From Eledone cirrhosa (taxonomy: Eukaryota): DNA of 64,000 nt. The notes beneath the pieces were generated by a model. It saw only the letters and a list, made by a program, of their open reading frames with translations. It had not been told where the DNA came from and ran no database searches. The DNA lies in the NCBI GenBank assembly GCA_964016885.1, contig OZ024748.1, positions 38,998,001 through 39,062,000 of the forward strand. The letters run 5' to 3'. Shown here piece after piece: positions 1,293-63,386 of the stretch (its first letter is position 1; each line of letters starts with the position of its first letter). Made by a program: the position numbers and the translations under genes.

Positions 1293-1299
<7 letters not shown>

Positions 1300-4200
1300 C
1301 AAATAACGAAACGAAATTAAATTTCGTTTCATTTGTAACTCACTTTTGTATGACTGACGCTTAAACAATTAAGTTAAAGATGTACATCCATATATGTATA
1401 CTGAAATACTAGTATGTATATGAATACACACACGTATACATATGTAGATGTACCAAGTTTTTTCACTGGTCACTTTACTGTGAGTGGCCAGCTATTCTGT
1501 ATGTAAACACACAGACAAACCGGTTTTTAGAGTCATACTGGTTTTTGAGGAAACACCTTTCCTCTATTCTCCAGAAAGCCAGACAAGGAATATTGAACTA
1601 GTTTCGTTGTTGTTACAACTCATCAGCAATATTTACCTATCTTCCGGCCTCTCTAGAGAATCGTAAAAGCACATATCGTTATATGCTTTTTCTATGAAAA
1701 TTAGTAGTGGGCAGACTAATTTGCATAGAGTGTGAGTAAGTACCGGTTCAACGGAGACGATAAAAACAAATAACGAAACGAAATTAAATTTCGTTTCATT
1801 TGTAACTCACTTTTGTATGACTGACGCTTAAACAATTAAGTTAAAGATGTACATCCATATATGTATACTGAAATACTAGTATGTATATGAATACACACAT
1901 GTATACATATGTAGATGTACCAAGTTTTTTCACTGGTCACTTTACTGTGAGTGGCCAGCTATTCTGTATGTAAACACACAGACAAACCGGTTTTTAGAGT
2001 CATACTGGTTTTTGAGGAAACACCTTTCCTCTATTCTCCAGAAAGCCAGACAAGGAATATTGAACTAGTTTCGTTGTTGTTACAACTCATCAGCAATATT
2101 TACCTATCTTCCGGCCTCTCTAGAGAATCGTAAAAGCACATATCGTTATATGCTTTTTCTATGAAAATTAGTAGTGGGCAGACTAATTTGCATAGAGTGT
2201 GAGTAAGTACCGGTTCAACGGAGACGATAAAAACAAATAACGAAACGAAATTAAATTTCGTTTCATTTGTAACTCACTTTTGTATGACTGACGCTTAAAC
2301 AATTAAGTTAAAGATGTACATCCATATATGTATACTGAAATACTAGTATGTATATGAATACACACACGTATACATATGTAGATGTACCAAGTTTTTTCAC
2401 TGGTCACTTTACTGTGAGTGGCCAGCTATTCTGTATGTAAACACACAGACAAACCGGTTTTTAGAGTCATACTGGTTTTTGAGGAAACACCTTTCCTCTA
2501 TTCTCCAGAAAGCCAGACAAGGAATATTGAACTAGTTTCGTTGTTGTTACAACTCATCAGCAATATTTACCTATCTTCCGGCCTCTCTAGAGAATCGTAA
2601 AAGCACATATCGTTATATGCTTTTTCTATGAAAATTAGTAGTGGGCAGACTAATTTGCATAGAGTGTGAGTAAGTACCGGTTCAACGGAGACGATAAAAA
2701 CAAATAACGAAACGAAATTAAATTTCGTTTCATTTGTAACTCACTTTTGTATGACTGACGCTTAAACAATTAAGTTAAAGATGTACATCCATATATGTAT
2801 ACTGAAATACTAGTATGTATATGAATACACACACGTATACATATGTAGATGTACCAAGTTTTTTCACTGGTCACTTTACTGTGAGTGGCCAGCTATTCTG
2901 TATGTAAACACACAGACAAACCGGTTTTTAGAGTCATACTGGTTTTTGAGGAAACACCTTTCCTCTATTCTCCAGAAAGCCAGACAAGGAATATTGAACT
3001 AGTTTCGTTGTTGTTACAACTCATCAGCAATATTTACCTATCTTCCGGCCTCTCTAGAGAATCGTAAAAGCACATATCGTTATATGCTTTTTCTATGAAA
3101 ATTAGTAGTGGGCAGACTAATTTGCATAGAGTGTGAGTAAGTACCGGTTCAACGGAGACGATAAAAACAAATAACGAAACGAAATTAAATTTCGTTTCAT
3201 TTGTAACTCACTTTTGTATGACTGACGCTTAAACAATTAAGTTAAAGATGTACATCCATATATGTATACTGAAATACTAGTATGTATATGAATACACACA
3301 CGTATACATATGTAGATGTACCAAGTTTTTTCACTGGTCACTTTACTGTGAGTGGCCAGCTATTCTGTATGTAAACACACAGACAAACCGGTTTTTAGAG
3401 TCATACTGGTTTTTGAGGAAACACCTTTCCTCTATTCTCCAGAAAGCCAGACAAGGAATATTGAACTAGTTTCGTTGTTGTTACAACTCATCAGCAATAT
3501 TTAACTATCTTCCGGCCTCTCTAGAGAATCGTAAAAGCACATATCGTTATATGCTTTTTCTATGAAAATTAGTAGTGGGCAGACTAATTTGCATAGAGTG
3601 TGAGTAAGTACCGGTTCAACGGAGACGATAAAAACAAATAACGAAACGAAATTAAATTTCGTTTCATTTGTAACTCACTTTTGTATGACTGACGCTTAAA
3701 CAATTAAGTTAAAGATGTACATCCATATATGTATACTGAAATACTAGTATGTATATGAATACACACACGTATACATATGTAGATGTACCAAGTTTTTTCA
3801 CTGGTCACTTTACTGTGAGTGGCCAGCTATTCTGTATGTAAACACACAGACAAACCGGTTTTTAGAGTCATACTGGTTTTTGAGGAAACACCTTTCCTCT
3901 ATTCTCCAGAAAGCCAGACAAGGAATATTGAACTAGTTTCGTTGTTGTTACAACTCATCAGCAATATTTACCTATCTTCCGGCCTCTCTAGAGAATCGTA
4001 AAAGCACATATCGTTATATGCTTTTTCTATGAAAATTAGTAGTGGGCAGACTAATTTGCATAGAGTGTGAGTAAGTACCGGTTCAACGGAGACGATAAAA
4101 ACAAATAACGAAACGAAATTAAATTTCGTTTCATTTGTAACTCACTTTTGTATGACTGACGCTTAAACAATTAAGTTAAAGATGTACATCCATATATGTA

Positions 4201-7200
4201 TACTGAAATACTAGTATGTATATGAATACACACACGTATACATATGTAGATGTACCAAGTTTTTTCACTGGTCACTTTACTGTGAGTGGCCAGCTATTCT
4301 GTATGTAAACACACAGACAAACCGGTTTTTAGAGTCATACTGGTTTTTGAGGAAACACCTTTCCTCTATTCTCCAGAAAGCCAGACAAGGAATATTGAAC
4401 TAGTTTCGTTGTTGTTACAACTCATCAGCAATATTTACCTATCTTCCGGCCTCTCTAGAGAATCGTAAAAGCACATATCGTTATATGCTTTTTCTATGAA
4501 AATTAGTAGTGGGCAGACTAATTTGCATAGAGTGTGAGTAAGTACCGGTTCAACGGAGACGATAAAAACAAATAACGAAACGAAATTAAATTTCGTTTCA
4601 TTTGTAACTCACTTTTGTATGACTGACGCTTAAACAATTAAGTTAAAGATGTACATCCATATATGTATACTGAAATACTAGTATGTATATGAATACACAC
4701 ACGTATACATATGTAGATGTACCAAGTTTTTTCACTGGTCACTTTACTGTGAGTGGCCAGCTATTCTGTATGTAAACACACAGACAAACCGGTTTTTAGA
4801 GTCATACTGGTTTTTGAGGAAACACCTTTCCTCTATTCTCCAGAAAGCCAGACAAGGAATATTGAACTAGTTTCGTTGTTGTTACAACTCATCAGCAATA
4901 TTTACCTATCTTCCGGCCTCTCTAGAGAATCGTAAAAGCACATATCGTTATATGCTTTTTCTATGAAAATTAGTAGTGGGCAGACTAATTTGCATAGAGT
5001 GTGAGTAAGTACCGGTTCAACGGAGACGATAAAAACAAATAACGAAACGAAATTAAATTTCGTTTCATTTGTAACTCACTTTTGTATGACTGACGCTTAA
5101 ACAATTAAGTTAAAGATGTACATCCATATATGTATACTGAAATACTAGTATGTATATGAATACACACACGTATACATATGTAGATGTACCAAGTTTTTTC
5201 ACTGGTCACTTTACTGTGAGTGGCCAGCTATTCTGTATGTAAACACACAGACAAACCGGTTTTTAGAGTCATACTGGTTTTTGAGGAAACACCTTTCCTC
5301 TATTCTCCAGAAAGCCAGACAAGGAATATTGAACTAGTTTCGTTGTTGTTACAACTCATCAGCAATATTTACCTATCTTCCGGCCTCTCTAGAGAATCGT
5401 AAAAGCACATATCGTTATATGCTTTTTCTATGAAAATTAGTAGTGGGCAGACTAATTTGCATAGAGTGTGAGTAAGTACCGGTTCAACGGAGACGATAAA
5501 AACAAATAACGAAACGAAATTAAATTTCGTTTCATTTGTAACTCACTTTTGTATGACTGACGCTTAAACAATTAAGTTAAAGATGTACATCCATATATGT
5601 ATACTGAAATACTAGTATGTATATGAATACACACACGTATACATATGTAGATGTACCAAGTTTTTTCACTGGTCACTTTACTGTGAGTGGCCAGCTATTC
5701 TGTATGTAAACACACAGACAAACCGGTTTTTAGAGTCATACTGGTTTTTGAGGAAACACCTTTCCTCTATTCTCCAGAAAGCCAGACAAGGAATATTGAA
5801 CTAGTTTCGTTGTTGTTACAACTCATCAGCAATATTTACCTATCTTCCGGCCTCTCTAGAGAATCGTAAAAGCACATATCGTTATATGCTTTTTCTATGA
5901 AAATTAGTAGTGGGCAGACTAATTTGCATAGAGTGTGAGTAAGTACCGGTTCAACGGAGACGATAAAAACAAATAACGAAACGAAATTAAATTTCGTTTC
6001 ATTTGTAACTCACTTTTGTATGACTGACGCTTAAACAATTAAGTTAAAGATGTACATCCATATATGTATACTGAAATACTAGTATGTATATGAATACACA
6101 CACGTATACATATGTAGATGTACCAAGTTTTTTCACTGGTCACTTTACTGTGAGTGGCCAGCTATTCTGTATGTAAACACACAGACAAACCGGTTTTTAG
6201 AGTCATACTGGTTTTTGAGGAAACACCTTTCCTCTATTCTCCAGAAAGCCAGACAAGGAATATTGAACTAGTTTCGTTGTTGTTACAACTCATCAGCAAT
6301 ATTTACCTATCTTCCGGCCTCTCTAGAGAATCGTAAAAGCACATATCGTTATATGCTTTTTCTATGAAAATTAGTAGTGGGCAGACTAATTTGCATAGAG
6401 TGTGAGTAAGTACCGGTTCAACGGAGACGATAAAAACAAATAACGAAACGAAATTAAATTTCGTTTCATTTGTAACTCACTTTTGTATGACTGACGCTTA
6501 AACAATTAAGTTAAAGATGTACATCCATATATGTATACTGAAATACTAGTATGTATATGAATACACACACGTATACATATGTAGATGTACCAAGTTTTTT
6601 CACTGGTCACTTTACTGTGAGTGGCCAGCTATTCTGTATGTAAACACACAGACAAACCGGTTTTTAGAGTCATACTGGTTTTTGAGGAAACACCTTTCCT
6701 CTATTCTCCAGAAAGCCAGACAAGGAATATTGAACTAGTTTCGTTGTTGTTACAACTCATCAGCAATATTTACCTATCTTCCGGCCTCTCTAGAGAATCG
6801 TAAAAGCACATATCGTTATATGCTTTTTCTATGAAAATTAGTAGTGGGCAGACTAATTTGCATAGAGTGTGAGTAAGTACCGGTTCAACGGAGACGATAA
6901 AAACAAATAACGAAACGAAATTAAATTTCGTTTCATTTGTAACTCACTTTTGTATGACTGACGCTTAAACAATTAAGTTAAAGATGTACATCCATATATG
7001 TATACTGAAATACTAGTATGTATATGAATACACACACGTATACATATGTAGATGTACCAAGTTTTTTCACTGGTCACTTTACTGTGAGTGGCCAGCTATT
7101 CTGTATGTAAACACACAGACAAACCGGTTTTTAGAGTCATACTGGTTTTTGAGGAAACACCTTTCCTCTATTCTCCAGAAAGCCAGACAAGGAATATTGA

Positions 7201-8630
7201 ACTAGTTTCGTTGTTGTTACAACTCATCAGCAATATTTACCTATCTTCCGGCCTCTCTAGAGAATCGTAAAAGCACATATCGTTATATGCTTTTTCTATG
7301 AAAATTAGTAGTGGGCAGACTAATTTGCATAGAGTGTGAGTAAGTACCGGTTCAACGGAGACGATAAAAACAAATAACGAAACGAAATTAAATTTCGTTT
7401 CATTTGTAACTCACTTTTGTATGACTGACGCTTAAACAATTAAGTTAAAGATGTACATCCATATATGTATACTGAAATACTAGTATGTATATGAATACAC
7501 ACACGTATACATATGTAGATGTACCAAGTTTTTTCACTGGTCACTTTACTGTGAGTGGCCAGCTATTCTGTATGTAAACACACAGACAAACCGGTTTTTA
7601 GAGTCATACTGGTTTTTGAGGAAACACCTTTCCTCTATTCTCCAGAAAGCCAGACAAGGAATATTGAACTAGTTTCGTTGTTGTTACAACTCATCAGCAA
7701 TATTTACCTATCTTCCGGCCTCTCTAGAGAATCGTAAAAGCACATATCGTTATATGCTTTTTCTATGAAAATTAGTAGTGGGCAGACTAATTTGCATAGA
7801 GTGTGAGTAAGTACCGGTTCAACGGAGACGATAAAAACAAATAACGAAACGAAATTAAATTTCGTTTCATTTGTAACTCACTTTTGTATGACTGACGCTT
7901 AAACAATTAAGTTAAAGATGTACATCCATATATGTATACTGAAATACTAGTATGTATATGAATACACACACGTATACATATGTAGATGTACCAAGTTTTT
8001 TCACTGGTCACTTTACTGTGAGTGGCCAGCTATTCTGTATGTAAACACACAGACAAACCGGTTTTTAGAGTCATACTGGTTTTTGAGGAAACACCTTTCC
8101 TCTATTCTCCAGAAAGCCAGACAAGGAATATTGAACTAGTTTCGTTGTTGTTACAACTCATCAGCAATATTTACCTATCTTCCGGCCTCTCTAGAGAATC
8201 GTAAAAGCACATATCGTTATATGCTTTTTCTATGAAAATTAGTAGTGGGCAGACTAATTTGCATAGAGTGTGAGTAAGTACCGGTTCAACGGAACGATAA
8301 AAACAAATAACGAAACGAAATTAAATTTCGTTTCATTTGTAACTCACTTTTGTATGACTGACGCTTAAACAATTAAGTTAAAGATGTACATCCATATATG
8401 TATACTGAAATACTAGTATGTATATGAATACACACACGTATACATATGTAGATGTACCAAGTTTTTTCACTGGTCACTTTACTGTGAGTGGCCAGCTATT
8501 CTGTATGTAAACACACAGACAAACCGGTTTTTAGAGTCATACTGGTTTTTGAGGAAACACCTTTCCTCTATTCTCCAGAAAGCCAGACAAGGAATATTGA
8601 ACTAGTTTCGTTGTTGTTACAACTCATCAG
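1293..8630 (-). repeat. 467-bp tandem array, left arm (~15.7 units), retrozyme family 1
   Basis: Identical text recurs every 467 nt (ORF track 1484, 1951, 2418 ...); each unit has an HHR on the minus strand; starts directly after (TA)n. Confidence 0.95.
1589..1633 (-). ncRNA. Minimal type I hammerhead ribozyme (first of 15 complete left-arm copies, +467 spacing)
   Basis: Minus strand reads AATATTG-CTGATGA-GTTG taacaa CAAC-GAAA-C ta GTT-CAATATT: stem I, core CUGAUGA, stem II, GAAA, 2-bp stem III within palindrome AACTAGTT, GUU site. Confidence 0.9.
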
Positions 8631-8760
8631 TATACATATATGGATGTACATCTTTAACTTAATTGTTTAAGCGTCAGTCATACAAAAGTGAGTTACAAAT
8701 GAAACGAAATTTAATTTCGTTTCGTTATTTGTTTTTATCGTCTCCGTTGAACCGGTACTT

Positions 8761-8820
8761 ACTCACACTCTATGCAAATTAGTCTGCCCACTACTAATTT
8801 TCATAGAAAAAGCATATAAC
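8761..8820 (+). promoter_or_regulatory. Octamer (ATGCAAAT) + conserved block + TATA-like module upstream of the HHR, present in every unit
   Basis: ATGCAAAT 8772-8779 and CATATAA 8813-8819; block conserved with the same spacing in family 2 (62971-63030). Confidence 0.55.
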
Positions 8821-8864
8821 GATATGTGCTTTTACGATTCTCTAGAGAGGCCGGAAGATAGGTA

Positions 8865-8909
8865 AATATTGCTGATGAGTTGTAACAACAACGAAACTAG
8901 TTCAATATT
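8865..8909 (+). ncRNA. Minimal type I hammerhead ribozyme (first of 7 right-arm copies)
   Basis: CTGATGA 8872-8878, GAAA 8893-8896, predicted cleavage after GUU at 8902; stem I extends via TTCTCTAGA...CCGGA / TCTGG...TCTGGAGAA. Confidence 0.9.
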
Positions 8910-11900
8910 CCTTGTCTGGCTTTCTGGAGAATAGAGGAAAGGTGTTTCCTCAAAAACCAGTATGACTCTAAAAACCGGTTTGTCTGTGTGTTTACATACA
9001 GAATAGCTGGCCACTCACAGTAAAGTGACCAGTGAAAAAACTTGGTACATCTACATATGTATACGTGTGTGTATTCATATACATACTAGTATTTCAGTAT
9101 ACATATATGGATGTACATCTTTAACTTAATTGTTTAAGCGTCAGTCATACAAAAGTGAGTTACAAATGAAACGAAATTTAATTTCGTTTCGTTATTTGTT
9201 TTTATCGTCTCCGTTGAACCGGTACTTACTCACACTCTATGCAAATTAGTCTGCCCACTACTAATTTTCATAGAAAAAGCATATAACGATATGTGCTTTT
9301 ACGATTCTCTAGAGAGGCCGGAAGATAGGTAAATATTGCTGATGAGTTGTAACAACAACGAAACTAGTTCAATATTCCTTGTCTGGCTTTCTGGAGAATA
9401 GAGGAAAGGTGTTTCCTCAAAAACCAGTATGACTCTAAAAACCGGTTTGTCTGTGTGTTTACATACAGAATAGCTGGCCACTCACAGTAAAGTGACCAGT
9501 GAAAAAACTTGGTACATCTACATATGTATACGTGTGTGTATTCATATACATACTAGTATTTCAGTATACATATATGGATGTACATCTTTAACTTAATTGT
9601 TTAAGCGTCAGTCATACAAAAGTGAGTTACAAATGAAACGAAATTTAATTTCGTTTCGTTATTTGTTTTTATCGTCTCCGTTGAACCGGTACTTACTCAC
9701 ACTCTATGCAAATTAGTCTGCCCACTACTAATTTTCATAGAAAAAGCATATAACGATATGTGCTTTTACGATTCTCTAGAGAGGCCGGAAGATAGGTAAA
9801 TATTGCTGATGAGTTGTAACAACAACGAAACTAGTTCAATATTCCTTGTCTGGCTTTCTGGAGAATAGAGGAAAGGTGTTTCCTCAAAAACCAGTATGAC
9901 TCTAAAAACCGGTTTGTCTGTGTGTTTACATACAGAATAGCTGGCCACTCACAGTAAAGTGACCAGTGAAAAAACTTGGTACATCTACATATGTATACGT
10001 GTGTGTATTCATATACATACTAGTATTTCAGTATACATATATGGATGTACATCTTTAACTTAATTGTTTAAGCGTCAGTCATACAAAAGTGAGTTACAAA
10101 TGAAACGAAATTTAATTTCGTTTCGTTATTTGTTTTTATCGTCTCCGTTGAACCGGTACTTACTCACACTCTATGCAAATTAGTCTGCCCACTACTAATT
10201 TTCATAGAAAAAGCATATAACGATATGTGCTTTTACGATTCTCTAGAGAGGCCGGAAGATAGGTAAATATTGCTGATGAGTTGTAACAACAACGAAACTA
10301 GTTCAATATTCCTTGTCTGGCTTTCTGGAGAATAGAGGAAAGGTGTTTCCTCAAAAACCAGTATGACTCTAAAAACCGGTTTGTCTGTGTGTTTACATAC
10401 AGAATAGCTGGCCACTCACAGTAAAGTGACCAGTGAAAAAACTTGGTACATCTACATATGTATACGTGTGTGTATTCATATACATACTAGTATTTCAGTA
10501 TACATATATGGATGTACATCTTTAACTTAATTGTTTAAGCGTCAGTCATACAAAAGTGAGTTACAAATGAAACGAAATTTAATTTCGTTTCGTTATTTGT
10601 TTTTATCGTCTCCGTTGAACCGGTACTTACTCACACTCTATGCAAATTAGTCTGCCCACTACTAATTTTCATAGAAAAAGCATATAACGATATGTGCTTT
10701 TACGATTCTCTAGAGAGGCCGGAAGATAGGTAAATATTGCTGATGAGTTGTAACAACAACGAAACTAGTTCAATATTCCTTGTCTGGCTTTCTGGAGAAT
10801 AGAGGAAAGGTGTTTCCTCAAAAACCAGTATGACTCTAAAAACCGGTTTGTCTGTGTGTTTACATACAGAATAGCTGGCCACTCACAGTAAAGTGACCAG
10901 TGAAAAAACTTGGTACATCTACATATGTATACGTGTGTGTATTCATATACATACTAGTATTTCAGTATACATATATGGATGTACATCTTTAACTTAATTG
11001 TTTAAGCGTCAGTCATACAAAAGTGAGTTACAAATGAAACGAAATTTAATTTCGTTTCGTTATTTGTTTTTATCGTCTCCGTTGAACCGGTACTTACTCA
11101 CACTCTATGCAAATTAGTCTGCCCACTACTAATTTTCATAGAAAAAGCATATAACGATATGTGCTTTTACGATTCTCTAGAGAGGCCGGAAGATAGGTAA
11201 ATATTGCTGATGAGTTGTAACAACAACGAAACTAGTTCAATATTCCTTGTCTGGCTTTCTGGAGAATAGAGGAAAGGTGTTTCCTCAAAAACCAGTATGA
11301 CTCTAAAAACCGGTTTGTCTGTGTGTTTACATACAGAATAGCTGGCCACTCACAGTAAAGTGACCAGTGAAAAAACTTGGTACATCTACATATGTATACG
11401 TGTGTGTATTCATATACATACTAGTATTTCAGTATACATATATGGATGTACATCTTTAACTTAATTGTTTAAGCGTCAGTCATACAAAAGTGAGTTACAA
11501 ATGAAACGAAATTTAATTTCGTTTCGTTATTTGTTTTTATCGTCTCCGTTGAACCGGTACTTACTCACACTCTATGCAAATTAGTCTGCCCACTACTAAT
11601 TTTCATAGAAAAAGCATATAACGATATGTGCTTTTACGATTCTCTAGAGAGGCCGGAAGATAGGTAAATATTGCTGATGAGTTGTAACAACAACGAAACT
11701 AGTTCAATATTCCTTGTCTGGCTTTCTGGAGAATAGAGGAAAGGTGTTTCCTCAAAAACCAGTATGACTCTAAAAACCGGTTTGTCTGTGTGTTTACATA
11801 CAGAATAGCTGGCCACTCACAGTAAAGTGACCAGTGAAAAAACTTGGTACATCTACATATGTATACGTGTGTGTATTCATATACATACTAGTATTTCAGT

Positions 11901-11927
11901 ATACATATATGGATGTACATCTTTAAC

Positions 11928-11991
<64 letters not shown>

Positions 11992-14209: not shown

Positions 14210-17200
14210 TTACAGACACATACTCAGAGTAGGCCCATTCACTCGGGCCATTCTTGCTTCTTTCACCATCTTTCAACAAAATGCTAGGAAGAGAGCACTT
14301 CCCTCTCTACCCTGATTTTCCTTTTCAAATCAGGACATCACCGAAGAGGTAAGTGCTCGTCTTCAGCCCTTTCGAACGTGTCCACCATACTATCTCTTTC
14401 GCCATGGCCACCAGACAGATAAAAATTGCCTGCACTTCCCGGCTAAAGGAAGAGGGCGGGGCAATCCTCACGATGGACTCAGCTGATAGCTGAATCCGTC
14501 CTACACGCGACAGCAGGTGTTCGACATAAACCCACAAGTCAGCAATGCTCAGGAACAGGATGAGTGCATGCAGGACGGTTTCGTCCGGCTGCGCGCATCT
14601 CGGACATGCCCGGCTGACGGCACCTCCATGCCTGTAGACTTTATCCCGAACAGGCAAAGCTCCTCGGTAGCACTGCCAGGCCAGGGATTTCTGGAAGTTG
14701 TCCATAGGCCCCGACCCGAAAGTTCTTCTGAAGAGATTGGCTAGTTGATTTTCGTCGACGCCTCGAGTTTCCCCAAGTACGTCGTCGCTCTTCCCCTCCA
14801 CTAATCCTCTATACAACGCCAAGGTGGAGCTTCAACCGATCACATTGCCCGATTGGTCGAGGGCTGTGAGCGCCTAAAGACATTCCAGTCTCCAAGCGCT
14901 CCCTTTCGGTCTTCGCTTGACCAAGGACTGCAGCTCCGTCAAGGAGACGAGCTGGGGAAAGACGCGTCTAGCAAACGGCGACCACACTTGATCACCGTCG
15001 AGGAAGAAGTGGAGATGTCGTAGCCTGAGCGAGTGTCTGCGCATCATCAGCCCTCCACGTAGCGGGTGTTGACAGCAGATGGACCGCCTGACCATCGGAG
15101 CGTTGTCCCTTCCACAAAAAGCGAAAGCGGAAACGCTCCAGCGCAGTCAGGCGGGGCTTAGGACAAGGTACGACCGTCAGGCGGTAGTAGATGACGGACG
15201 CGATGTACGCGTTAGCCACCTCCGCTCGACCTTTCAGGGATAGCTTCCTCTCCGCCCATTTCTGGGTGAGAGAAGCCATCCTGCTCGTCACCTCGTCACA
15301 GTTTTTGTCCGTTTTGAGGTCTGGACCGAACCAGACCCCTAGCAATTTAACCGGTCCGTCCGTCCAGCGCCCGACGACGCTGTTGGACGGCTGGACTTGC
15401 CTCTCCAGGTTCCGAGCTGCAGGCCCACTGACTTTTCTTGGTTGATCATTGCTCCTGTCACCGCTTCGTATTTTCTTAGTGTAGTGCCGATCGCCTCGAT
15501 GTGTTTGGCGTTCGACACCACTACGGTGACATCGTCCGCATATGCTGACACTGATCTTCCGCATCCTAGTTCGCGTGGGATTCCCCTCAACGTCTCCAGT
15601 TTGTGCAGTAATGGCTCGAGAGTCAATACATACAAGAGGGACGAGAGGGGACATCCTTGGCGGACCGAACGCATGATGTTGAACGGTTCCGAAAGGTGAC
15701 TGTTGACTGTCACCACAGAGCAGATGTCGCTGTGCATGGCAGCGATCCAGCCTCTGAAGACGGGCCCAAAGCCAGCTGCCCTCAGGACTGCAGCTAGGTA
15801 ACGATGGTCGACCCTATCGAAAGCTTTCGACTGATCTAAATTGATCAAGGACCCACCCGTGCCAGGTTCCCTAGCTACCCTCTCCACGATGTACCGCATG
15901 AGGTGGAGGTTGTCGTGGATGGATCTGTCGGGAATGGCGCATGTCTGCGCCTCTCCCACCAGACCACCAACGACAAGCGCCAACCTCTTTGCTAGCACCT
16001 TGGCCAAAATCTTGAACTCTGTGTTTAGCAGAGTTATGGGCCTGAAATTATCTATGTTATCCCCCTTGTTCGGATCCTTTCTCAGCAACGCCACCGCTCC
16101 TCGGCTCACAGAGCTGGGAATTCTCCCGTTCTGTTGCCAGTTGCAGTAGACGTCCGCCAAGAGGCCTCCAAACAAGTCTGGCATCTGTACGTAAAGTTCA
16201 TAGGGCAGACCATCGAAACCAGGCGATTGTGCAGCCAGTCATTGCCTCCCGTACTTCAGCGACTGTTATCGGCTTTTCGCAACACTCCGCCTCAGTGGCC
16301 GAGGGCCGCGGCAGTCCGTCGAGGTAGACACTAAAGTCCATCCCTCGATGCGGTCCGCCGCTGCCCCCGAACAGCTGAGCGAAGTGTCGCTGAAAAGCTT
16401 CACACATTTGCCCGAGATCGAGTAGCATGCGCCCGTCGTGGTCCATCAAAGACCGGATCGTGGCTTTGTTGCCACGACGCGCCTCCGTCACTCGGGCCCA
16501 TTGAACGGCTTTCGTCCTCTCGTGTCTGAGAGCACGCACCCTAGCTCTGACAACGCAGCCTTCGTGCTTTGCATTGAAGAATTGGTCAAGGGCCAATTTC
16601 GCCGCAAGTACGTCGGTCGCGATGCCTTTGCTAAGCGCCTCGTCTAATTTTCTAACTAGTTCTCCCTCTGCTCTATTTTTCTCTATTGCTAAAGCCTTAC
16701 TAAACCTAATGGACTCTATTCTAATCGCTCTTTTCAGAGCAAACCACCACTTGTTGTTGACGATGGCCCCCGTCAACGCCCGCTTAACTAGTTCGCTAAT
16801 CCGGTCTCTGTAGACCTTGCGCGCTGGTAAGGACGCGTTTAGCTTCCAGTAGCCGGGTCCTCGTCTATGAAGCCTATCTAAGTCAAGCACACAGATCACG
16901 AATTTGTGGTCCGTGTAGCTGACTATCTTGAATTGTGGACAGCCTACGCTAGACCTATCTATTTCCCTACAAAATACTCTATCTAGATCTGATCTGGATG
17001 ACCCTATGCGATTTGTCCAAATCCACATTGGCACATTCAGGAAATCCAATCGGTACCTGTCAGACAGTTCAAAACGCCTGAGCAGGTTAGTGAGGCTCTT
17101 GCACCCTCCTCTCCTATCCGCTAATCCCACACAGTCCCAGCGTCCATCTAAGATCCCGTTCCAGTCGCCCACTAACACTAAAGAGCGGGACGTTCCAAGA

Positions 17201-17585
17201 AAGGTCTCAAGACGCCGGAAGAAATCAGGCACCCCTGCTCCTGTCGGGACATAGACGGCCACTAGCCTGAAAGCTTGCCCGTCTCAGCTGGTCACGTCCA
17301 GCACCACCAACTTACCTTCTGGGTCCAGGAATATGGCCCGTATGGCGAGATCCAAACCTCTCTGAAAAACACAGCAACTCCTCCCTCCGATCCAGGACGG
17401 CTGGGAGATGCGTACACATCGTAGCCGCCGAAGATGGGTGTGAAGGCCCGTGCTTCGGAGATTCTGGTCTCGCTGATGGCCACTACATCTATGTTTAGTG
17501 ACCTGAGGTCGTTGAGCAGGTGGCCCTGCTTCCATGACGACCCCAAGCCACGCGCATTTAAGCTGCCTATTCTGAGTGAGGTCAT
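14210..17585 (-). pseudogene. Tx1 ORF2 (APE endonuclease + reverse transcriptase + C-terminal Cys/His domain), frameshifted
   Basis: MTSLRIGSLNARGLG, VGDWNG, LDRVF, YTDHK (APE); FRPITLLN, DQSKAFDRVDH, RQGCPLS, AYADDVT (RT); CPRC..ETVLHAL; split over several frames. Confidence 0.9.
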
Positions 17586-17619
17586 GTTGAAATGGAGTGG
17601 AAAAGATGGGAAACACCAC

Positions 17620-19790
17620 TTACCGTACTTTTCGTAGAGGAAGGATGGTTTCTCCATCCCTTTTCACTTGATCGTCTGGTGAAGGGACCGTTGAATCGTC
17701 CCTTCGGCTGGTCGTTGGCTCTTCTATGAGTATGTCCGCATATACTCTCCGGTTGAGAGTCCCTCCTAGGTCTCTGAAATCACCAACTGCGTTGGGGAAT
17801 TTCGTTTTAATCTTTGTGTATTGTTTCTGTGCTATTATTACCAGTCTTATGTTCGTTGGTGTTTTGATTGGTGCTGGTATTATGTAGTCGTGCTGTGAAA
17901 TGTCTGTGTGTTCAATTATGTAAGTCATTAGTTTCTTGTTGTGTGTATTTATTGCCGTGCATTTGTTTTCTGGGGGTGGGATGTGGTTCTGCTATTTTCT
18001 TGTCGTTGTTGCTGGGTGTGTGTGTTTTGTTGTTGTGTTTGCGATGTTGGTGCTTGTGGTGGTGGTGTTGAGGGTGTTGTTGTTGTTGGCGGTGGGGTTT
18101 TCGCCGGTGGTGATGGTGGTGCTAGTGTGGGTGGTGATGGTGTTGGTGGTGTTGTTGCTGTGAGTCTCTTTGCAGTAGTCTTTACCCTTTTTCCATTTCT
18201 TTCCTCCCTTTTCGAAGGCGACGATGCGCTGCTTCTGCGTTTGTGCCTTCTTGCGACCTTTTACCATCCCTCTCCCACCTCACACTCCATGTCTGATTCT
18301 GTGAGGTCGGGGAGGGGTACCAGCTCCACTCTTTCACTTGTTGTTGTTGGTGATGTTTGCAGTGGAGTCTCTGTTGCAGCTGCAGTTGGTATTACTGTTG
18401 TTGTTGTTAATACTTCCAGTGCTGCTGCTGTTCTTGATTTCCGTAATGTGGGTATGGGTGCCACGGATCTATCGTTCCTGGTTGCCGCTTATCCTGTTGC
18501 TGGTTGCAGTGGAGCCGGTTTCGGAAGGAGGGGCGTTTTCTCCTTGCTCGGGATCTTCTCGTTGCAGAAGGCCCTGAGGTGAGTCTTCGATCCACAGTGA
18601 AAGCATTTCGGGCGTTTGCCCTTAACACTTATGGGCAGTTGAGTGCCGTTATCGAAGTCTATCACATCCGGGATAGCTTCGATGCACTCCCGGTTGGTTT
18701 GGATTAACATCTCAATGGAGGTGCCGACCCAATCTTCTCTTACTTTTTTCTGTACTTGCAGTACAGTTGTTTTGTCCTCGATTCCGACGAGGACAGACGC
18801 GGCCAGCCAAGAAGGGGCCATCCGGGGGGGGGGGGGGGGGGGGGGCGTGGGTCAGTTTGACCCTCACAATTTTTGCCCGCAGTAGGAGGGCACCAACACC
18901 ATTTCCTCGTTCCTTAGGGTCACTAAGGATTGAGTCTTTGCCTGCTGTGATGTGGCAAAAAGCACGTCTACGGTGGCATATTTCTTGCCTCGGGTGATAT
19001 GCGTTTTCCGCTGCCACACAGACCCTAAGGCTTTTTGTATTTGAGCCTCTGTGGCTCTTTCAACCCTACGGGATTTTGTGCTTACTGTACGGTACGTGAC
19101 CATACAGTGCTGTTGGGTTTCGAAAAAATTTTCGGCTGCCTTGCAGATTGCTCGGTGTCCGCTTTTCGTCACCATCTTCTTTGCTTCCTGTAATTCCTCA
19201 TTTGTTATGAGGATGGTTTCCAGGTTCTTTGCGATACCTGCAAACGAGATTGGTTTTTCTTTGCTGCCGCTGTTGTTGTTGTTGTTGTCGTCAGAGCTGC
19301 TGTTACTTTTGTTGTTGCTGCAGGTACTACGACTACTGTCGCCGCCGCTGTTGCTGTGGTTGTTGTTGTTGTTGCTGCTGTTGCTGCTGCTGTTGTTGTT
19401 GCTGTTGCTGCTAATTCTGTTGTTGTTTATGCTGCTGCTGATGCTGTTGCGGCTGCTACTGTTGTTTTCCTTGTCACTGTTGCTGCTGCTGCTGTTATTA
19501 CGGCTGCTACTGCTATTATTCATGACGTCAGACGAATGAAATGGGTTTTCGTATTTACCGCACACCTTTTTCGTCGTTGTCGTCGTCGTGGAGAAATGTT
19601 CCATGTTTTGCACGTGATTTTGGAAACTATTTTTCTTTACTGGCGTCGCTTGCGAAAGAGAAGGGAGGGAGAGAGACACATTTAGAGAAGGTAGGGAGAG
19701 AGACAATCTTCTCTCTGCTGTAGTGACGATTGAGGAAGAAGAAGACGGAATGAGTGGGAGTGACTTGTGAAAATTATATTTTGTAGCCAT
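17620..19790 (-). pseudogene. Tx1 ORF1 (gag-like nucleic-acid-binding protein), frameshifted
   Basis: CFHCGSKTHLRAFC zinc knuckle; homologous to copy B ORF1 (PSYCG/PSYMG, IPDVI/IPDRI, GKRP/GRRP); frame breaks at a G22 run. Confidence 0.8.
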
Positions 19791-20033
19791 GTTTTTGGGG
19801 GGGTTTAAAATAAATATTGGGCACAAAACCCCAATAAGCGGTTATTTAACCCCGAAGGACCAAATAACGGGCAGAAAGACCCCTCTCACGAGGTGGAGGG
19901 TGTTTTTGTCTACAATTTGGTTCAAGTTTTAAACAATTTACAATTGTTATAGCGGTCAAAATTTACAATACCTTACAGAGCCGAGCCTCCGTCAACCATG
20001 GCATTCAATAATAATAATAATAATAATAATAAT

Positions 20034-21857
20034 GATGTTACCAACTATAGACCTATCACATGTCTGTCTGTAATGTGGAAACTGTTGACAAGCATTATGT
20101 CTGAAGAAATCTACCATCACCTCCACACAAACAACTTGTTACCGGACGAACAGAAAGGATGCCGAAAGAAGTCCCGTGGTACAAAGGACCAGTTACTTAT
20201 TGATAAGATGGTAATGAGGAATTGCAAGAGGAGACACACTGGTCTTGCCATGGGATGGATAGACTACAAAAAGGCATTTGACATGGTGCCTCATTCTTGG
20301 ATCACCAACAGCCTAGAGATCTTCAAGGTGGCAAATAACATCAGACAGTTGTTGGCCAAAAGTATGAAGTCCTGGAAAACAGAGTTAACATCAGCTGGAG
20401 AATCCTTGGGAGGCGTGAAGATCAAGAGAGGTATCTTCCAGGGAGATAGTCTGTCCCCTCTGTTGTTTGTCCTTGCCCTGATGCCCCTGACCATTATACT
20501 GCGTAAAGTGAGAGCAGGATACAAGTTGGGAAAGGGAGAGCTTACCATCAAATATTTTCGTATTCTGGAGGTTGATGACATCAAGAACAAAAGAATGAAG
20601 GAGTTGATAAGATCTGAATACATTCGGAGAGTAAGGAGCGTATTAAAGTCACATCTGAACAGTAGGAATGCCATAAGTGCAGTAAATTCCCGAGCTCTGT
20701 CTATTATTAGGTACAGTGCGGGAATTCTGAAATGGAATGTTGCTGAACAAAAAGAAATGGATAGGAAGACTAGGAAGCTATTGACTATCTACAACATGTT
20801 CCACAAGAGGAGTTATGTCGATAGACTCTACTTAAGGAGATCTGAAGGTGGAAGAGGTCTTATCAGCATAGAGGACTGTGTTCAGATGGAGAAAAACAAC
20901 CTACACAAATACGTGACCGATAGTAAGGAGCCAATGCGCAGAATTGTACTGAAGGAGAGGACAATAGACCAGGGGTTGTCCAAGGAGGAAATAACAACAA
21001 GGAGAAAGACCAGCCTTCATGAAAAATCCCTTCATAGTACCTTCTTTGAGAAAATGGAATTCAGAGATCCACAGACATGGAACTGGTTGAAAAGAGGAGA
21101 CCTTAAAAAGGCTACAGAAGAAATGCTAATGGCTGCGCAAGAGCATGCCCTCAAAACGAAGTGGCTGAAACACCATATTTACAAGGAGGAGGCTAGTCCA
21201 CTGTGCAGGATCTGTGGAGAGAGAGAGAGAGGAGACTGTGGCTCACATTGTATCAGAGCGTAAACACCTAGCCCAGACTCACTATAAAGGCTGGAGACAT
21301 GATGTGATGGGCAGGGTGATGCACTGGCACCTATGCAAAGTAAACAATTTACAACATTCTGAGAAGTGGTATGAGCATAAGCCAGAGTCGGTGATAGAAA
21401 ACGATCAGGTGAAGGTGCTATGGGATTTTAGGATACAGACGGACAAGAAACTAGAACACAATAGACCTGACCTGGTGGTTTTGGACAAGGAAAAAAGATC
21501 GTGCCTGATTGTGGATGTGGCCTGCCTATTCGACACGAGAGTGCAAGAGAAGGAGAGGGAGAAAATTAACCGATACCAAGACTTAAAGTGGGAGGTAAAA
21601 AGGATTTGGAACTGCCATGAAGTCAAAGTGGTCCCGATTGTCATAGGCGCACTAGGTACTATCTCAAAAGGTTTCCAGGGATGGTTAAAGAAAATTGGCC
21701 CCGCCCCGCTTTTTGGAACACTTCAAAAGGCATGCTTGCTGGGAACAGCAAGAACCCTCCGATACGTCCTGAATATCTGAGGCTGCAGGTAGTGGCTTGA
21801 TATTAATTTCAACAAACTTTCCAGTTAACTAACATCAATGACTGAGACTCAAAGAAC
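20034..21857 (+). mobile_element. 5'-truncated R4/Dong-like non-LTR retrotransposon (RT + restriction-like endonuclease)
   Basis: [32 protein letters not shown]; CRIC..H, RHD, RPDLV...DVA...K RLE motifs; (AAT)n on both sides; YxDD region deleted; frameshift at a GA run near 21230. Confidence 0.88.
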
Positions 21858-36843: not shown

Positions 36844-37257
36844 TGGTGGACGAGATTGAGAGGACTGAGGACAGATGCCTTTCTCTCCCTTCTTTAAGTA
36901 TCACTTTAGAAGGAGAATCAGAGTGGAGAGAGAGGCACTGCACCCCAGTAAATTTACTGAAAGGTGGGTAAATGTGACAAAAATGGCCCGAGTGATTGGG
37001 CCTTCTCTGTTTATAAGCCTGTAGGTTAAAGAAGAGAGTAAAAGGAAGAAAGGATCACTTGCACAGCACGCTCCTGGAGTTGAGGGTTGTTCTATCGACG
37101 GGGTATTAAACAACCCATTTGTGGGGCTTCCCCCCTATTGTGGATTTCGATTGTTGTAATTGTTTGTTTTATATTTTGTACACGACTGTATGTAAAATCC
37201 CCGGCATGTCTTTGTATTGTCCCCTTTTCTTGTGCGCCCTTGTGGCAAATAAAGAAA
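36844..37257 (+). mobile_element. Tx1 3' fragment (copy D)
   Basis: Near-identical to ~38494-38927; (TATC)n both sides. Confidence 0.9.
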
Positions 37258-37301
37258 TCTATCTATCTTTTTGTCTGTATGTCTGTCTGTCTATCTATCT
37301 C

Positions 37302-37336
<35 letters not shown>

Positions 37337-37342
37337 CTCTCT

Positions 37343-38927
37343 CTCGGAAATCGGGGTGATCGGCAACTTACTGAAAGAATACGAAACGCTGACGGGAGCA
37401 AAACTAAACCCAGACAAGTCTGTCGGTTTGCAACTCGGTACGTGGAGAGGCAAACCGATGACATCCGACAGCGTCGTTGGACGTTGGACGGACGGACCGG
37501 TGAAATTGCTCGGGGTCTGTTTCGGTCCAGACCTCCAGGTGGAGAAAAACAGGAACGAGGTCACAGCCAAGGTGTTTGCACTCACTCAGAAGTGGGCAGA
37601 GTGGAAACTGTCCTTGAAAGGTCGAGCGGAGGTGGCGAACACTTTCATAGCGTCCGTCATCTACTACCGCTTGACTGTCGTGCCTTGTCCCCGTGAACAC
37701 CTCGCCAAGATGGAACGCATGCTCTTCCAATTTCTGTGGAAGAAGCAGGCTCCGCTGGTGAGGAGATCCGTCTGCTGTTAGCACCCTTCCAACGGAGGGC
37801 TAGGAATGCCGTGGCTGATGATGCGCAAACATGCGCTGAGGCTGCGGCATCTCCAGGTATTCCTCACCGACCCCCAACCGGTGTGGGCACCGTTTGTGAG
37901 ACAGGCTTTTCCACAGCTCGTCTTGCTAACGGAGCTGCAGTCCTGGGTGAAGAAAAGACCGAAAACGATGGGCACCTGGCACATTGAATGCGCTCAGGCG
38001 CTCTCAGTCCTCTGGCAAGCGGGCGCAGCAATCAGTGGAGACTCCACTTCGACATTCTATAGAGGGATTGTACGTTACAAGGGCGACGACGTGCTCGGAG
38101 AGACTCTGGGCGTCGAAGACGATGAGCTCACCAGTCTGTTTGGTAGGACTTTCCGCCCGGGACCTATGGACAACTTCCAGAGGTCCCTGGCCTGCCAGTG
38201 CTACCGAGGAGCTCTACCGGTTCGTGACAAGATCTACAGGCACGAATGCCCTGGCAAGGATCCTTCCAAGAGGACGTGTCCAAGATGTGCGCAGGATATT
38301 GAAACAGTTCTGCACGCAATTGTACACTGCCCGGGCGTAACCGACCTGTGGAACTATGCAGAACAACTGCTGTCGCGTATGGGACAAATCCAGTTGACTG
38401 CCGAGTCCATAGTAAGGATCAAACCGCCAGCCTCTTTCAAAAACGAAAGAGAGGCGGTTTTCCTCTGTACGGTGGCTATGGTGAAAGAAGTTATATGGTG
38501 GACGAGGTTGAGAGGACTGAGGACAGATGCCTTTCTCTCCGAACAACGATTGATTCCCTTCTTTAAGTATCACTTTAGAAGGAGAATCAGGGTGGAAAGA
38601 GAGGCACTGCACCCCAGTAAATTTACTGAAAGGTGGGTGAATGAAGCGAAAATGGCCCGAGTGACTGGACCTTCTCTGTTTATAAGCCTGTAGGTTGAGG
38701 AAGAGAGCAAAAGGAAGAAAGGAGCACTTGCACAACACACTCCTGGAGTTGAGGGTTGTTCTATCGACGGGGTATTAAACAACCCATTTGTGGCGCCTCC
38801 CCCCTATTGGGGATTTCGATTGTTGAAATTGTTTGTTTTTATATTTTTACACGACTGTATGTAAAATCCCCGGCATGTCTTTGTATTGTCCCCTTTTCTT
38901 GTTGCGCCCTTGTGGCTAATAAAGAAA
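37343..38927 (+). mobile_element. 5'-truncated Tx1 (copy C)
   Basis: ORF2 C-terminal half (KLSLKGRAEVAN, GGLGMP, CPRC..ETVLH), one stop at 37779, AATAAA then (TATC)n. Confidence 0.9.
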
Positions 38928-39151
38928 TCTATCTATCTACCTATCTATCTTGATAGAGTGAGACACGCTTCACATCGGCTCCGCTATTCTATCGGAATTT
39001 ACCCTTACTATAGTAAGTACCAGTGAATTTTTTCAGTGCAACACATTTGGAACACATACCCCTGTTATTTAGGGAAACATTTTTACATTTACCCCCTTTT
39101 TAGGGGGTAAAATAAATAACTATTTTTCTGTAAAACTTCTTTCTTGGCAGC

Positions 39152-41004: not shown

Positions 41005-41008
41005 TCAA

Positions 41009-44000: not shown

Positions 44001-44437
44001 GGGATCCTTCGAAAAAGATCTGTCCCAGATGCGTGCGCGACGAGGAAACCGTTGCGCACGCACTGGTACACTGCCTGGGCGTTGCCGATCTGTGGGGCTA
44101 CGTCGAACGACTGCTGTCGCGTGTGGGGCCGATTCGATTGACCGCCGAGTCTGTGGTGAACATCAAGCCGCCTCCTCCCTTCAGAAAGGAAGCAGAAGCG
44201 GTCTTTCTGTGCGTAATAGCCATGATGAAAGAGGTTGTGTGGTGGACGCGCCTGAAAGGTCTGAGGTCGGGTGACTTTCTTTCCGGCCAACACCTGGTTT
44301 ACTTCTTCTGATACCACTTCGGAAGAAGGATCAGGATGGAGAGAGAAGGGCTTGGCCCCAGACAGTTTTATGAAAGGTGGGTGAAAGAAGCGAGAATGGC
44401 TCGTGTAAATGGGCCTTCTCTCTACATTGTTCTGTAG
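41009..44437 (+). pseudogene. Tx1 ORF2 (APE + RT), several frameshifts/stops
   Basis: GCLNARG, VGDWNG, YLDRF, YSDHK; SPGLDGL, FRPITLLN, KAFDRVDH, RQGCPLS, AYADDVT, CPRC..ETVAH. Confidence 0.92.
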
Positions 44438-44714
44438 GTGAAGAAGTGAAGAGGAAAGGGGGAGCGCCTCCTCTCTGGGCTTCCCCCGCGAAAAGGGTTG
44501 CACACTTTTCGGGGGTATGTGCAATCCCCAACACGCCCCCTCCCTTTTGATCACTTTTTATTATTATATTATTCTTATTATGTCTTTTTCTTTACTCGCA
44601 TTTATGTAAACTCCCCCCTGTGTATTTGTCCCTTTCTCTTGTGCCCTAGTGGCAAATAAATATATCTATCTATGTATTTGTCTGTCTGTCTCTATGTATG
44701 TCTATCTAACTATC

Positions 44715-45413: not shown

Positions 45414-45451
45414 CATACTTTCAGACGTTCAATCATCTGGCAGGAAGGGAT

Positions 45452-45494
45452 ACGATGCTGACGATAGCTAATAAGCTTGAAACTAGTACAGCGT
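45452..45494 (+). ncRNA. Type I hammerhead, retrozyme family 2
   Basis: ACGATG-CTGACGA-tAGCTaataAGCTt-GAAA-C ta GTA-CAGCGT (one stem I mismatch). Confidence 0.75.
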
Positions 45495-45776
45495 TCCTTT
45501 GTCAGTATTGAACAAACGAGCAACGATGGTTGCTAGACACTACGGCTTAATACGGGATGTTTGTTTACAAACACACCGAGCATTATAATAAATGTTCGGT
45601 GAATCCATACGTACATATATATATGTGTGCATGTATGTATATATATACACATACTACTGTACGTCTGTATACATATATACGTATACATATGTACGTATAC
45701 ATATATACGTATACATATGTACGTATGCATACTTATATATATATATATACATATATATATATTTATATATATATAT

Positions 45777-45889
<113 letters not shown>

Positions 45890-45953
45890 TATGTATACGT
45901 ACAAACATATATGTATACAGACGTACAGTACTATGTATATATATATATATATA

Positions 45954-46790: not shown

Positions 46791-46879
46791 TACAGCTGTT
46801 ACTTAAATATAAGTATGTATACGTACATACATATATGTATACAGACGTGTATATATATATAGTAATAATAATAAATTTG

Positions 46880-48978: not shown

Positions 48979-49010
<32 letters not shown>

Positions 49011-51166: not shown

Positions 51167-52243
51167 TTGAAAAAAATGAAAACGAAATTTCATTTCTCAC
51201 TCTTAGTATGGCACTTACTTAAATGTAAGTATGTATGTATACGTACATACATATATGTATACAGACGTACAGTAGCATGCATATATATATACATATATAC
51301 ACATATATATATATACATACATATATACATATATATACATATATGCACACAGGTACACATACATATATGCACGCATCAGTTTAGCCGACGTTTATTATAA
51401 CGCAGCTTTGTTCGTTTGTTTGTCAACAAAGCGAACAGCCTGAATTTATGCCATACGGTGTTAAGGCAACCACGTCACCTTTTGTTCAACACTGACACAG
51501 GAACGATGTACTAGTTTCAAGCTTGTTAGCTATCATCAGCACCGTTTACCCATCTGCCAGATAGTTGAACGTTCGAAAGTATATACTTTCCTTATGAAAA
51601 TTAACGGCTGAGCAGCCTAATTTGCATATTGAGTGAGTTAAATCGGTCAGGCATACCGAAAACGATAAGTTGAAAAAAATGAAAACGAAATTTCATTTCT
51701 CACTCTTAGTATGGCACTTACTTAAATGTAAGTATGTATGTATACGTACATACATATATGTATACAGACGTACAGTAGCATGCATATATATATACATATA
51801 TACACATATATATATATACATACATATATACATATATATACATATATGCACACAGGTACACATACATATATGCAAGGAAAGTATATACTTTCGAACGTTC
51901 AACTATCTGGCAGATGGGTAAACGGTGCTGATGATAGCTAACAAGCTTGAAACTAGTACATCGTTCCTGTGTCAGTGTTGAACAAAAAGGTGACGTGGTT
52001 GCCTTAACACCGTATGGCATAAATTCAGGCTGTTCGCTTTGTTGACAAACAAACGAACAAAGCTGCGTTATAATAAACGTCGGCTAAACTGATGCGTGCA
52101 TATATGTATGTGTACCTGTGTGCATATATGTATATATATGTATATATGTATGTATATATATATATGTGTATATATGTATATATATATGCATGCTACTGTA
52201 CGTCTGTATACATATATGTATGTACGTATACATACATACTTAC
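51163..52243. mobile_element. Retrozyme family 2, 503-bp period, head-to-head inverted
   Basis: 51167 repeats at 51670; inversion near 51873; HHRs at 51502-51546 (-) and 51921-51965 (+); (TA)n on both sides. Confidence 0.85.
51921..51965 (+). ncRNA. Type I hammerhead, family 2 (mirror copy 51502-51546, minus)
   Basis: AACGGTG-CTGATGA-tAGCTaacaAGCTt-GAAA-C ta GTA-CATCGTT. Confidence 0.8.
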
Positions 52244-62679: not shown

Positions 62680-63386
62680 CCTAAATACATATATGTATAC
62701 ACAGACGTACAGTAGTATGTATATATATACATACATGCACATATATATATATATGCACGTATCGGTTTACCGAACATTTATTATAATGCTTGGTTTGTTT
62801 GTTTGTCATGTATATATATATATACATACTACTGTACGTCTGTATACATATATGTATGTACGTATACATACATACATACTTACATTTAAGTAATGCCGTA
62901 CTAAGAGTGAGAAATGAAATTTCGTTTCATTCTATTCCATTTATGGTTTTCGGTGTGCCCGGCCGACTGAACTCACTCGATATGCAAATTAGGCTGCTCA
63001 GCCGTTAATATGCATAAGGAAAGTATATACTTTCAGACGTTCAACCATCTGGCAGGAAGGTATACGATGCTGACGATAGCTAATAAGCTTGAAACTAGTA
63101 CATCGTTCCTGTGTCAGTGGTGAACAAAAAGGTGACGTGATTGCCTAAACACTGTACGGCGTAATTCGGGCTGTTTGTTTGTTTACAAACAAACAAACCG
63201 AGCATTATAATAAATGTTCGGTAAACCGATACGTGCATATATATATATGTGTGCATGTATGTATATATATATATACATACTACTGTACGTCCGTATACAT
63301 ATATGTATGTACGTATACATACATGCATACTTACATTTAAGTAAGTGCCGTACTAAGAGTGAAACTGAAATTTCGTTTCATTCTAT

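Follow-up and report, generated by a model that had tools for sequence, protein, structure and literature searches.

A candidate snRNA-type promoter built into the tandem hammerhead retrozymes of Eledone cirrhosa

Hammerhead arrays and the upstream block

The window analysed in this study is a stretch of 64,000 nucleotides of Eledone cirrhosa DNA. Two arrays of family-1 repeats are joined in it in inverted orientation. The minus-strand array (1293..8630) contains 15.7 units of 467 bp and ends in (TA)n, and the plus-strand array (8627..11932) contains 7.1 units of 467 bp and ends in (AT)n. The block studied here lies in the first unit of the plus-strand array. Along the unit, the box is followed by the PSE-like core, the TATA, the hammerhead, the body, the insertion-end stem-loop and then the next box. 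On the plus strand, the 12-nt proximal box TATGCAAATTAG is located at 8771..8782, with the octamer at 8772-8779, and it has the same letters as a box at -78 in a host U6 gene. The PSE-like core CCACT follows at 8788..8792; its YCA at box+17 is found in families 1-5, and the match is weak in family 1. The TATA-like box at 8813..8819 lies 25 nt past the core, which is the spacing of host Pol II snRNA genes. Transcription is predicted to start at 8844, an A after a pyrimidine 56 nt past the core, as in U1, U2 and U4. The region upstream of the box (8663..8738) forms a stem-loop with a terminal T5 (8732-8736), and both of its edges are family-1 insertion-end sites. ACTCAC at 8761..8766 was rejected as a promoter element, being limited to families 1 and 2; it is probably not one because it is predicted to pair in RNA with upstream GTGAG (GTGAGT at 8688-8693).

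The family-2a promoter and hammerhead occupy 62971..63100 on the plus strand, with the box at 62981-62992, the core TCAGC at 62998-63002, the TATA at 63024-63030, a predicted +1 at 63054 and the hammerhead core from 63070. Those of family 2b occupy 51509..51638 on the minus strand, with the hammerhead core from 51539 and a T7 run upstream of the box. In the whole window, the box TATGCAAATKAG with a TATA-like box was found upstream of a hammerhead in 24 places, and the pattern ACTCAC-N4-TATGCAAATTAG had 24 matches, 22 in family 1 and 2 in family 2. An earlier note had quoted the block as a family-1 string (8761-8820, plus strand) and a family-2 string (62971-63030, plus strand). Both were exact, and the gap that had been placed before TATG in the family-1 string was not needed. 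The minus-strand family-2 copy that it mentioned is present at 51638-51579, but it is a sister subfamily with three differences rather than the same string. The octamer-to-TATA spacing given as 41-42 nt was reproduced (41 nt from 8772 to 8813, 42 nt from 62982 to 63024), and so was the long stem downstream of the block, which starts at 8838-8840 and folds with z = -4.9 (0/200 shuffles equally stable). We also observed a perfect box at 56393-56404 (plus strand) with no hammerhead downstream, and a similar AT-rich context at locus L015; the hammerhead-less box here and the one upstream in L015 possibly belong to another repeat family. Family-2 copies at 45415-45916 and 51928 (both plus strand) are cut off at or just before the TATA and hence have no box.

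The long stem with its type I hammerhead spans 8838..8931 on the plus strand. The core is at 8872-8902, helix III has one pair and the loop is a palindromic CUAG. The cut is predicted after 8902 (GUU; GUC in one subfamily), and changes in stem II at 8880 and 8891 are complementary. Rfam HH9 matches recurred at the 467-bp period; their 37.7-41.1 bits fall short of the gathering score of 52. On the evidence of these matches, a structure-based scan and the stem II changes, each tandem unit contains a type I hammerhead with an intact core, and self-cleavage is predicted. Hammerheads with such a short helix III are said to act as dimers, according to PMC4209133 and PMC7229834. Circular folds of whole units gave z = -9.8, -7.7 and -7.6 (40 shuffles each), so that the circles are predicted to be highly self-paired. 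No ORF of at least 170 aa was found over the arrays, and the short non-coding tandem units are dispersed through the genome, as in retrozymes. By all the sequence features examined, the elements classify as non-LTR retrozymes. Rfam microRNA matches in the window fell on simple repeats, below the gathering score, and were discarded.

The insertion ends of family 1 were then compared with Penelope-like elements. In 11 of 13 family-1 arms the end lay either 33-34 or 107-108 nt upstream of the box, in most cases passing directly into (AT)n; six rows were dropped from this count as family-2 cross-matches or internal inverted matches, and family-2 arm ends were excluded as (TA)n noise. Loose ends were located at 8737-8738 (DNA contigs). 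The two fixed 3' ends into (AT)n, together with two junctions with Penelope-like fragments, may link the units to Penelope-like elements; no partner element was found. In the window, a 5'-truncated Penelope-like ORF with the reverse transcriptase end and GIY-YIG (PF01541, E=1.3e-4) lies at 46813-47847 (plus strand), and an inverted family-2-like piece (46791-46858) adjoins its 5' end. At locus L100, a family-3-like copy abuts a Penelope-like reverse transcriptase frame that is truncated at its 5' end; the junction is possibly a template switch. Other repeats were seen as well. A short non-coding element with an inverted arm in (TA)n occurs at 63450-63645 and 49010-49200, and also upstream of promoterless U6/U6atac copies (L014, L085, L110). 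A direct repeat of about 600 bp period at 45955-46790 ends in (TA)n on the minus strand, with no hammerhead core found in it. LINE-type reverse transcriptase fragments were recognised by eye in the ORF list at 15339-21780, 37110-45471 and 58605-60008.

Occurrence and conservation in the genome

In the 3.0-Gb genome, the box followed after 80-100 nt by CTGANGA gave 8,403 matches (reversed control 0), and the box followed after 60-79 nt by the hammerhead-core pattern gave 19,235 (reversed control 1), about 27,600 in total against a control of 1. The association of box and hammerhead is far above chance. In an unbiased sample of 80 stretches of 10 kb (800 kb) picked by position, 9 of 11 perfect boxes lay upstream of a hammerhead-like core; the other two were one truncated family-4 copy and one unexplained box. 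The sample also contained 29 hammerhead-like matches, 20 of which were of other types and without the promoter module. Other hammerhead types, with an AT-rich helix III, were observed in the window at 50115 (minus strand) and 50920 (plus strand), with 18 more in L176-L251. No box, core or TATA was found upstream of these, and they are perhaps Penelope terminal repeats.

The earlier note had described the octamer and its spacing to the TATA-like box as kept while much of the rest diverges. Families 1 and 2 can be aligned along the entire unit (301/501 columns). The box is identical in 12/12 positions, as compared with 23-25/38 in the promoter spacer and 98-116/180 in the body. The description thus holds for the 12-nt box, but the spacer is conserved about as much as the body. 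Excess conservation of the block appeared between subfamilies, where the 61 nt after the box were identical in 58/61 positions and the body in 150/180 (p=0.019), and in a second comparison in 53/61 and 98/155 (p=0.0005); between families 1 and 2 it did not, except in the box. The insertion-end region was conserved between subfamilies about as well as these 61 nt. Among one representative each of families 1-5, the invariant positions near the box were 11 box letters, CA at +18/19 and one upstream T, and a single K position was the only variable box letter.

A box-blind scan found two further tandem hammerhead families without the box, family 7 (310 bp; L124/L125) and family 8 (314 bp; L059:1966-2560, L112). 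Old degenerate hammerhead-core families with the box were also observed, namely family 4 (L092, L093, L094, L212), family 5 (L095, L096, L129) and family 6 (L101, L102). Families 4 and 6 have T5-T8 runs shortly past the ribozyme, and no TATA box could be assigned in family 6 (L101, L102).

Host snRNA promoters and the choice of polymerase

Promoters of host U6, U1, U2, U6atac, MRP, RNase P, U5, U4 and 7SK loci were compared after near-identical tandem copies had been collapsed. We inspected 30 U6, 12 U1, 3 of 10 U2 plus one more, 9 of 14 U5, 8 of 14 U4 and 8 U6atac loci. For 7 of the 8 U6atac and 2 of the 30 U6 loci no promoter could be recognised; these are probably pseudogenes and were excluded. 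Six further U6 copies had an insertion in the promoter. The final set consisted of 16 Pol II and 7 Pol III promoters, where the polymerase labels rest on gene class together with terminal T-runs or 3' boxes, not on experiment.

The box TATG(C/G)(A/T)AAT(T/G)AG was found at -77 to -79, with a TATA at -30, in three U6 types, U6atac and MRP (5/7 host Pol III genes). It was identical to the retrozyme box in three genes and changed by one letter in two. The box was absent from the -77 to -79 region of RNase P and 7SK and from all U1/U2/U4/U5 promoters (0/16). In all 16 Pol II snRNA promoters, AATTA was seen near -89, the YCAG-type core between -55 and -58 and the TATA-like box around -30; a 3' box was present downstream of all 15 Pol II snRNA genes looked at. 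Because both host classes have TATA-like boxes, the presence of a TATA cannot decide the polymerase. The distance from the core to the best TATA was 22-29 nt in 16/16 Pol II promoters versus 31-33 nt in 6/6 scorable Pol III genes (MRP has no clear core), as measured with a TATA matrix built from Pol III genes. U6 cores scored weakly on the Pol II core matrix. The start was Y|A in 11/11 U1/U2/U4 promoters and T|G in 5/5 box-bearing Pol III genes, and a host distal element was located at -258 to -289 in 11/23 promoters. We also observed that RNase P and 7SK have a Pol II-type TCAGT core at Pol III spacing (32 and 33 nt), that 7SK has an octamer-like word at -118, and that a variant U6 tandem array with a one-letter-changed box at G000:C19:31.78-31.84 Mb carries an insertion between TATA and gene in 6/26 copies.

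The block matched these host promoter motifs, in agreement with the snRNA-like character claimed in the earlier note. The core-to-TATA distance was 25, 26 and 27 nt in families 1, 2 and 3, and 29-32 nt in family 4. Predicted starts were Y|A in families 1-3 and T|G in two of three family-4 copies. Box to TATA measured 42-44 nt in families 1-3 versus 47-49 nt in the five host box-bearing genes. The retrozymes therefore have the box of host U6/U6atac/MRP genes and the core-to-TATA distance of host U1/U2/U4/U5 genes. Box and short core-TATA spacing occurred together in 0/23 host promoters, a sample to which U3, U7, U11, U12, U4atac, Y, vault and tRNA-Sec promoters did not belong, and therefore no exact host template was found in it. 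From its place at -77 to -79 in U6, U6atac and MRP, the octamer can be identified as the proximal box of the U6 class in this genome. The octamer of the earlier note is thus a host snRNA motif, but it is not a distal enhancer of the vertebrate style, and it is optional.

The match was next examined family by family. A matrix built from Pol II cores recovered its own sites in 16/16 leave-one-class-out tests, and its best site was box+17 in 8/10 representatives (families 1, 2, 3, 5). The core match was strong for family 5 and for family 2 (p about 0.001); for family 1 it was weak (p=0.078). With a three-part host Pol II model, the best site lay 72-77 nt upstream of the hammerhead core in families 2a, 2b, 7 and 8, which ranked 8, 2, 38 and 9 of 1000 dinucleotide shuffles, respectively; the model failed to pick the family-1 site (337 and 736 of 1000 shuffles). 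A core and TATA match with Pol III spacing in the family-1 body (4/1000) was missing from subfamily 1b (654/1000) and was set aside. A YCAG core with a TATA at 22-29 nt and an A start 55-58 nt downstream was found in families 2, 3 and 7. Family 8 has the spacing with a predicted start at G, and family 1 has the spacing with a weak core. AATTA at 32-34 nt before the core was absent in family 1, with near matches in families 2, 7 and 8; in families 7 and 8, TAATTT lies 33 nt upstream of the YCAG core and TATAAG 26-27 nt downstream. The distal element of family 7 is identical to that of one U6 gene and lies 257 nt before the next predicted start (0/1000 shuffles). Matches were weaker in family 8 (-258; 41/1000 shuffles) and family 3 (about -275 to -279), and no host distal element was found in families 1 and 2. 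The matches in families 3, 7 and 8 sit in the 3' arm of the ribozyme stem. A near match to the 3' box was seen in 3/6 units (8.8-10.2 bits; host 10.1-15.7), and shuffles often matched too. Judged from sequence, what the families share is the PSE-like core and TATA, and the box appears dispensable, as two sister families are without it.

These results suggest that the block is very probably an snRNA-type promoter built into each retrozyme unit. It may be asked whether the block is instead no working promoter but an inherited RNA structure or protein-binding site, the units being transcribed by host-gene read-through as a 2020 review has it. RNA around the box is predicted to form a hairpin (8771..8805, plus strand; AAATTAG/CTAATTT, and AAATGAG/CTCATTT in family 3), which co-varies in families 1-3; ACTCAC is predicted to pair upstream, families 1 and 2 are related throughout, and the review (PMC7761336) states that retrozymes seem promoterless. 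However, pairing would permit the box to drift, yet 11/12 letters are fixed in five families and are those of the host U6/MRP box, and the boxless families keep core, TATA, start and distal element at host spacings. We consider this reading very improbable. As 5/5 host promoters showed no significant hairpin, the hairpin in the retrozymes fits the built-in promoter being part of the RNA.

Given a promoter, Pol II is probably the polymerase, because the core-TATA spacing and the Y|A start match host U1/U2/U4-type genes. We consider it unlikely that the block is a type 3 (U6-type) Pol III promoter whose spacer has been shortened, with most transcripts ending at the T-run upstream of the next box and a leaky minority continuing to full monomers. 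The box does mark U6, U6atac and MRP and is absent from 16/16 Pol II promoters, the layout of the degenerate family 4 is exactly that of U6, with 48 from box to TATA and T|G at +78, and a TATA selects Pol III in vertebrates, according to PMC1761439. In families 1-3, only the 12-nt box is U6-class; box-TATA distance, core-TATA distance and T|G start are not. Their spacer is 3-6 nt shorter than in the host box-bearing genes, more than the 2-nt deletion that human U6 is described as tolerating in PMC11696126, and host Pol II snRNA genes likewise have TATA-like boxes. Reports from other animals caution against reading the polymerase from spacing: for human snRNA promoters, Shah et al. argue that spacing is not the polymerase determinant (PMC11696126), and in flies the PSEA sequence is reported to decide the polymerase (PMC1761439).

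T-runs bear on the same question. In the window's family-1 unit, T4+ runs occur only in the promoter and just upstream, and none is present in the 333 nt body, an arrangement of T-run-free transcribed region and T5+ terminator that would suit Pol III; the depletion was not significant (P 0.065-0.30). It was not significant in 5/5 units tested, of which both family-2 units were also without T4+. Other amplified units break the arrangement: one family-1 subfamily (C1) has T5/T6 in its body, family 2b has T7 before the box and family 8 has two T5, and all of these would need Pol III to read through. The earlier note had held that T-runs argue against multimeric Pol III transcripts; this applies to the subfamilies with T5-T7, but not to the window's own T4+-free family-1 body. 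The T-run is otherwise accounted for as an insertion-end site. Since a Penelope-like protein is reported to start reverse transcription from two internal sites, which the two insertion-end sites would match, and to cut AT-rich DNA (PMC11167929), the T-run need not be a terminator.

The hybrid anatomy could also be that of a compact dual promoter, with Pol II making the read-through multimers that replicate and Pol III making short terminated RNAs. Human 7SK, U6 and RPPH1 are described as being transcribed by Pol II as well (PMC11696126), but families 7 and 8 have Pol II-type geometry only, and we regard a dual promoter as quite improbable. Taken as a whole, a built-in snRNA-type promoter, probably read by Pol II, is the best explanation of the sequences, and we hold it with moderate confidence overall.

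Proposed mechanism and relation to known systems

In the mechanism that we propose, SNAPc would bind the PSE-like core and a POU-type factor the box. Transcription would start at about 8844 and cross hammerhead n, which would be cut about 59 nt into the transcript. The transcript would continue through the promoter of the next unit to a second cut at hammerhead n+1. The proposal of the earlier note that every unit holds the promoter of the ribozyme that follows it is supported by position. The two ribozymes may fold together as a dimer, which is proposed because helix III has one pair and a palindromic loop. The resulting 467-nt monomer, probably circularised, would retain the promoter: as the cuts fall between promoter copies, it would contain what a gene with an upstream promoter normally loses on retrotransposition. 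A Penelope-like reverse transcriptase might then begin copying at one or the other side of the stem-loop that precedes the box, inserting the copies in tandem into (AT)n.

In a bolder version, the retrozymes would be snRNA genes in circular permutation, and the ribozyme's 3' arm would also serve the next unit as its distal enhancer, fixing the unit at ~310-340 bp (families 3, 7, 8). The box lineage would come from a U6 Pol III promoter, of which the old family 4 would be a remnant; a loss of 4-5 bp from the core-TATA spacer would have moved it to Pol II. The outcome would be a hybrid unlike any host promoter, whose RNA could read through T-runs. We put this forward tentatively and regard it as unlikely.

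The promoter of newt satellite 2 is reportedly of the octamer/PSE type. Papers citing the original work (Coats, Zhang and Epstein 1994; Cremisi et al. 1992, via PMC2220036 and PMC6765202) describe an snRNA-type promoter transcribed by Pol II, which bears out the precedent named in the earlier note. Satellite 2, too, repeats a hammerhead in tandem, with an snRNA-type promoter inside the unit as is proposed here; its helix III also has one pair and its loop is palindromic (PMC7229834). In contrast to it, the elements here form several divergent families in one invertebrate-type genome, their octamer belongs to the U6 class of proximal boxes and is accompanied by a TATA, and promoter parts have been exchanged between families. 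In schistosome SINE-like hammerhead repeats, cleavage is described as leaving the promoter at the 3' end of the monomer, each unit being driven from the one upstream, as proposed here; theirs is the Pol III promoter of a SINE-like element, whereas the elements here are of the upstream snRNA-gene type (PMC6765202).

Metazoan non-LTR retrozymes (Cervera and de la Pena 2020, PMC7229834; PMC7761336; bioRxiv 10.64898/2026.07.22.740005) share with these elements the non-coding tandem units with one type I hammerhead each, the thousands of dispersed copies, the predicted self-paired circles and the Penelope-like elements alongside. Unit size differs, families 1-2 having 430-502 nt and the metazoan retrozymes a reported ~170-400. 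According to the 2020 review (PMC7761336), retrozymes do not seem to harbour promoters. The 2026 preprint (bioRxiv 10.64898/2026.07.22.740005) derives retrozymes from Penelope repeats; the word 'promoter' is absent from its main text, and its supplements could bear on the point. In the literature searched, which did not extend to subscription journals, no title or abstract on snRNA-type promoters in invertebrate retrozymes was found. Penelope-like elements are similar in their two discrete 3' ends, AT-rich targets, inverted or partial-tandem insertions and dimer-type hammerheads (PMC11167929, PMC4209133). The retrozymes differ from them in having no ORF, and in ends 74 nt apart as against the 30-40 bp tail cited for Drosophila virilis Penelope. 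With host U6/U6atac/MRP promoters the retrozymes share the box, the box-to-core distance and a TATA (as in U6), and with host U1-U5 promoters the core-to-TATA distance and the Y|A start, families 1-2 being without the distal element. The promoter likely works like an snRNA promoter, and to judge from these motifs it fits neither host class plainly.

Animal retrozymes are described as abundantly expressed yet have been held to be promoterless (PMC7761336), the older cases of the newt and schistosome repeats standing apart as exceptions. In the present comparison the host snRNA genes serve as an internal standard, which several families match element by element. The comparison predicts the start base and the polymerase and names point mutations that can be tested; it is applicable to any retrozyme-bearing genome. 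As a by-product, it gives this animal's snRNA promoter grammar: a TATA-like box is present in both classes, and what distinguishes them, by about half a helical turn, is the core-to-TATA distance. It also suggests a route by which a retroelement could keep a wholly upstream promoter, which would travel in the RNA when the cut falls between promoter copies. If the reading as permuted snRNA genes were general, a captured snRNA promoter would account both for the roughly 330 bp that animal retrozymes measure and for how strongly they are expressed.
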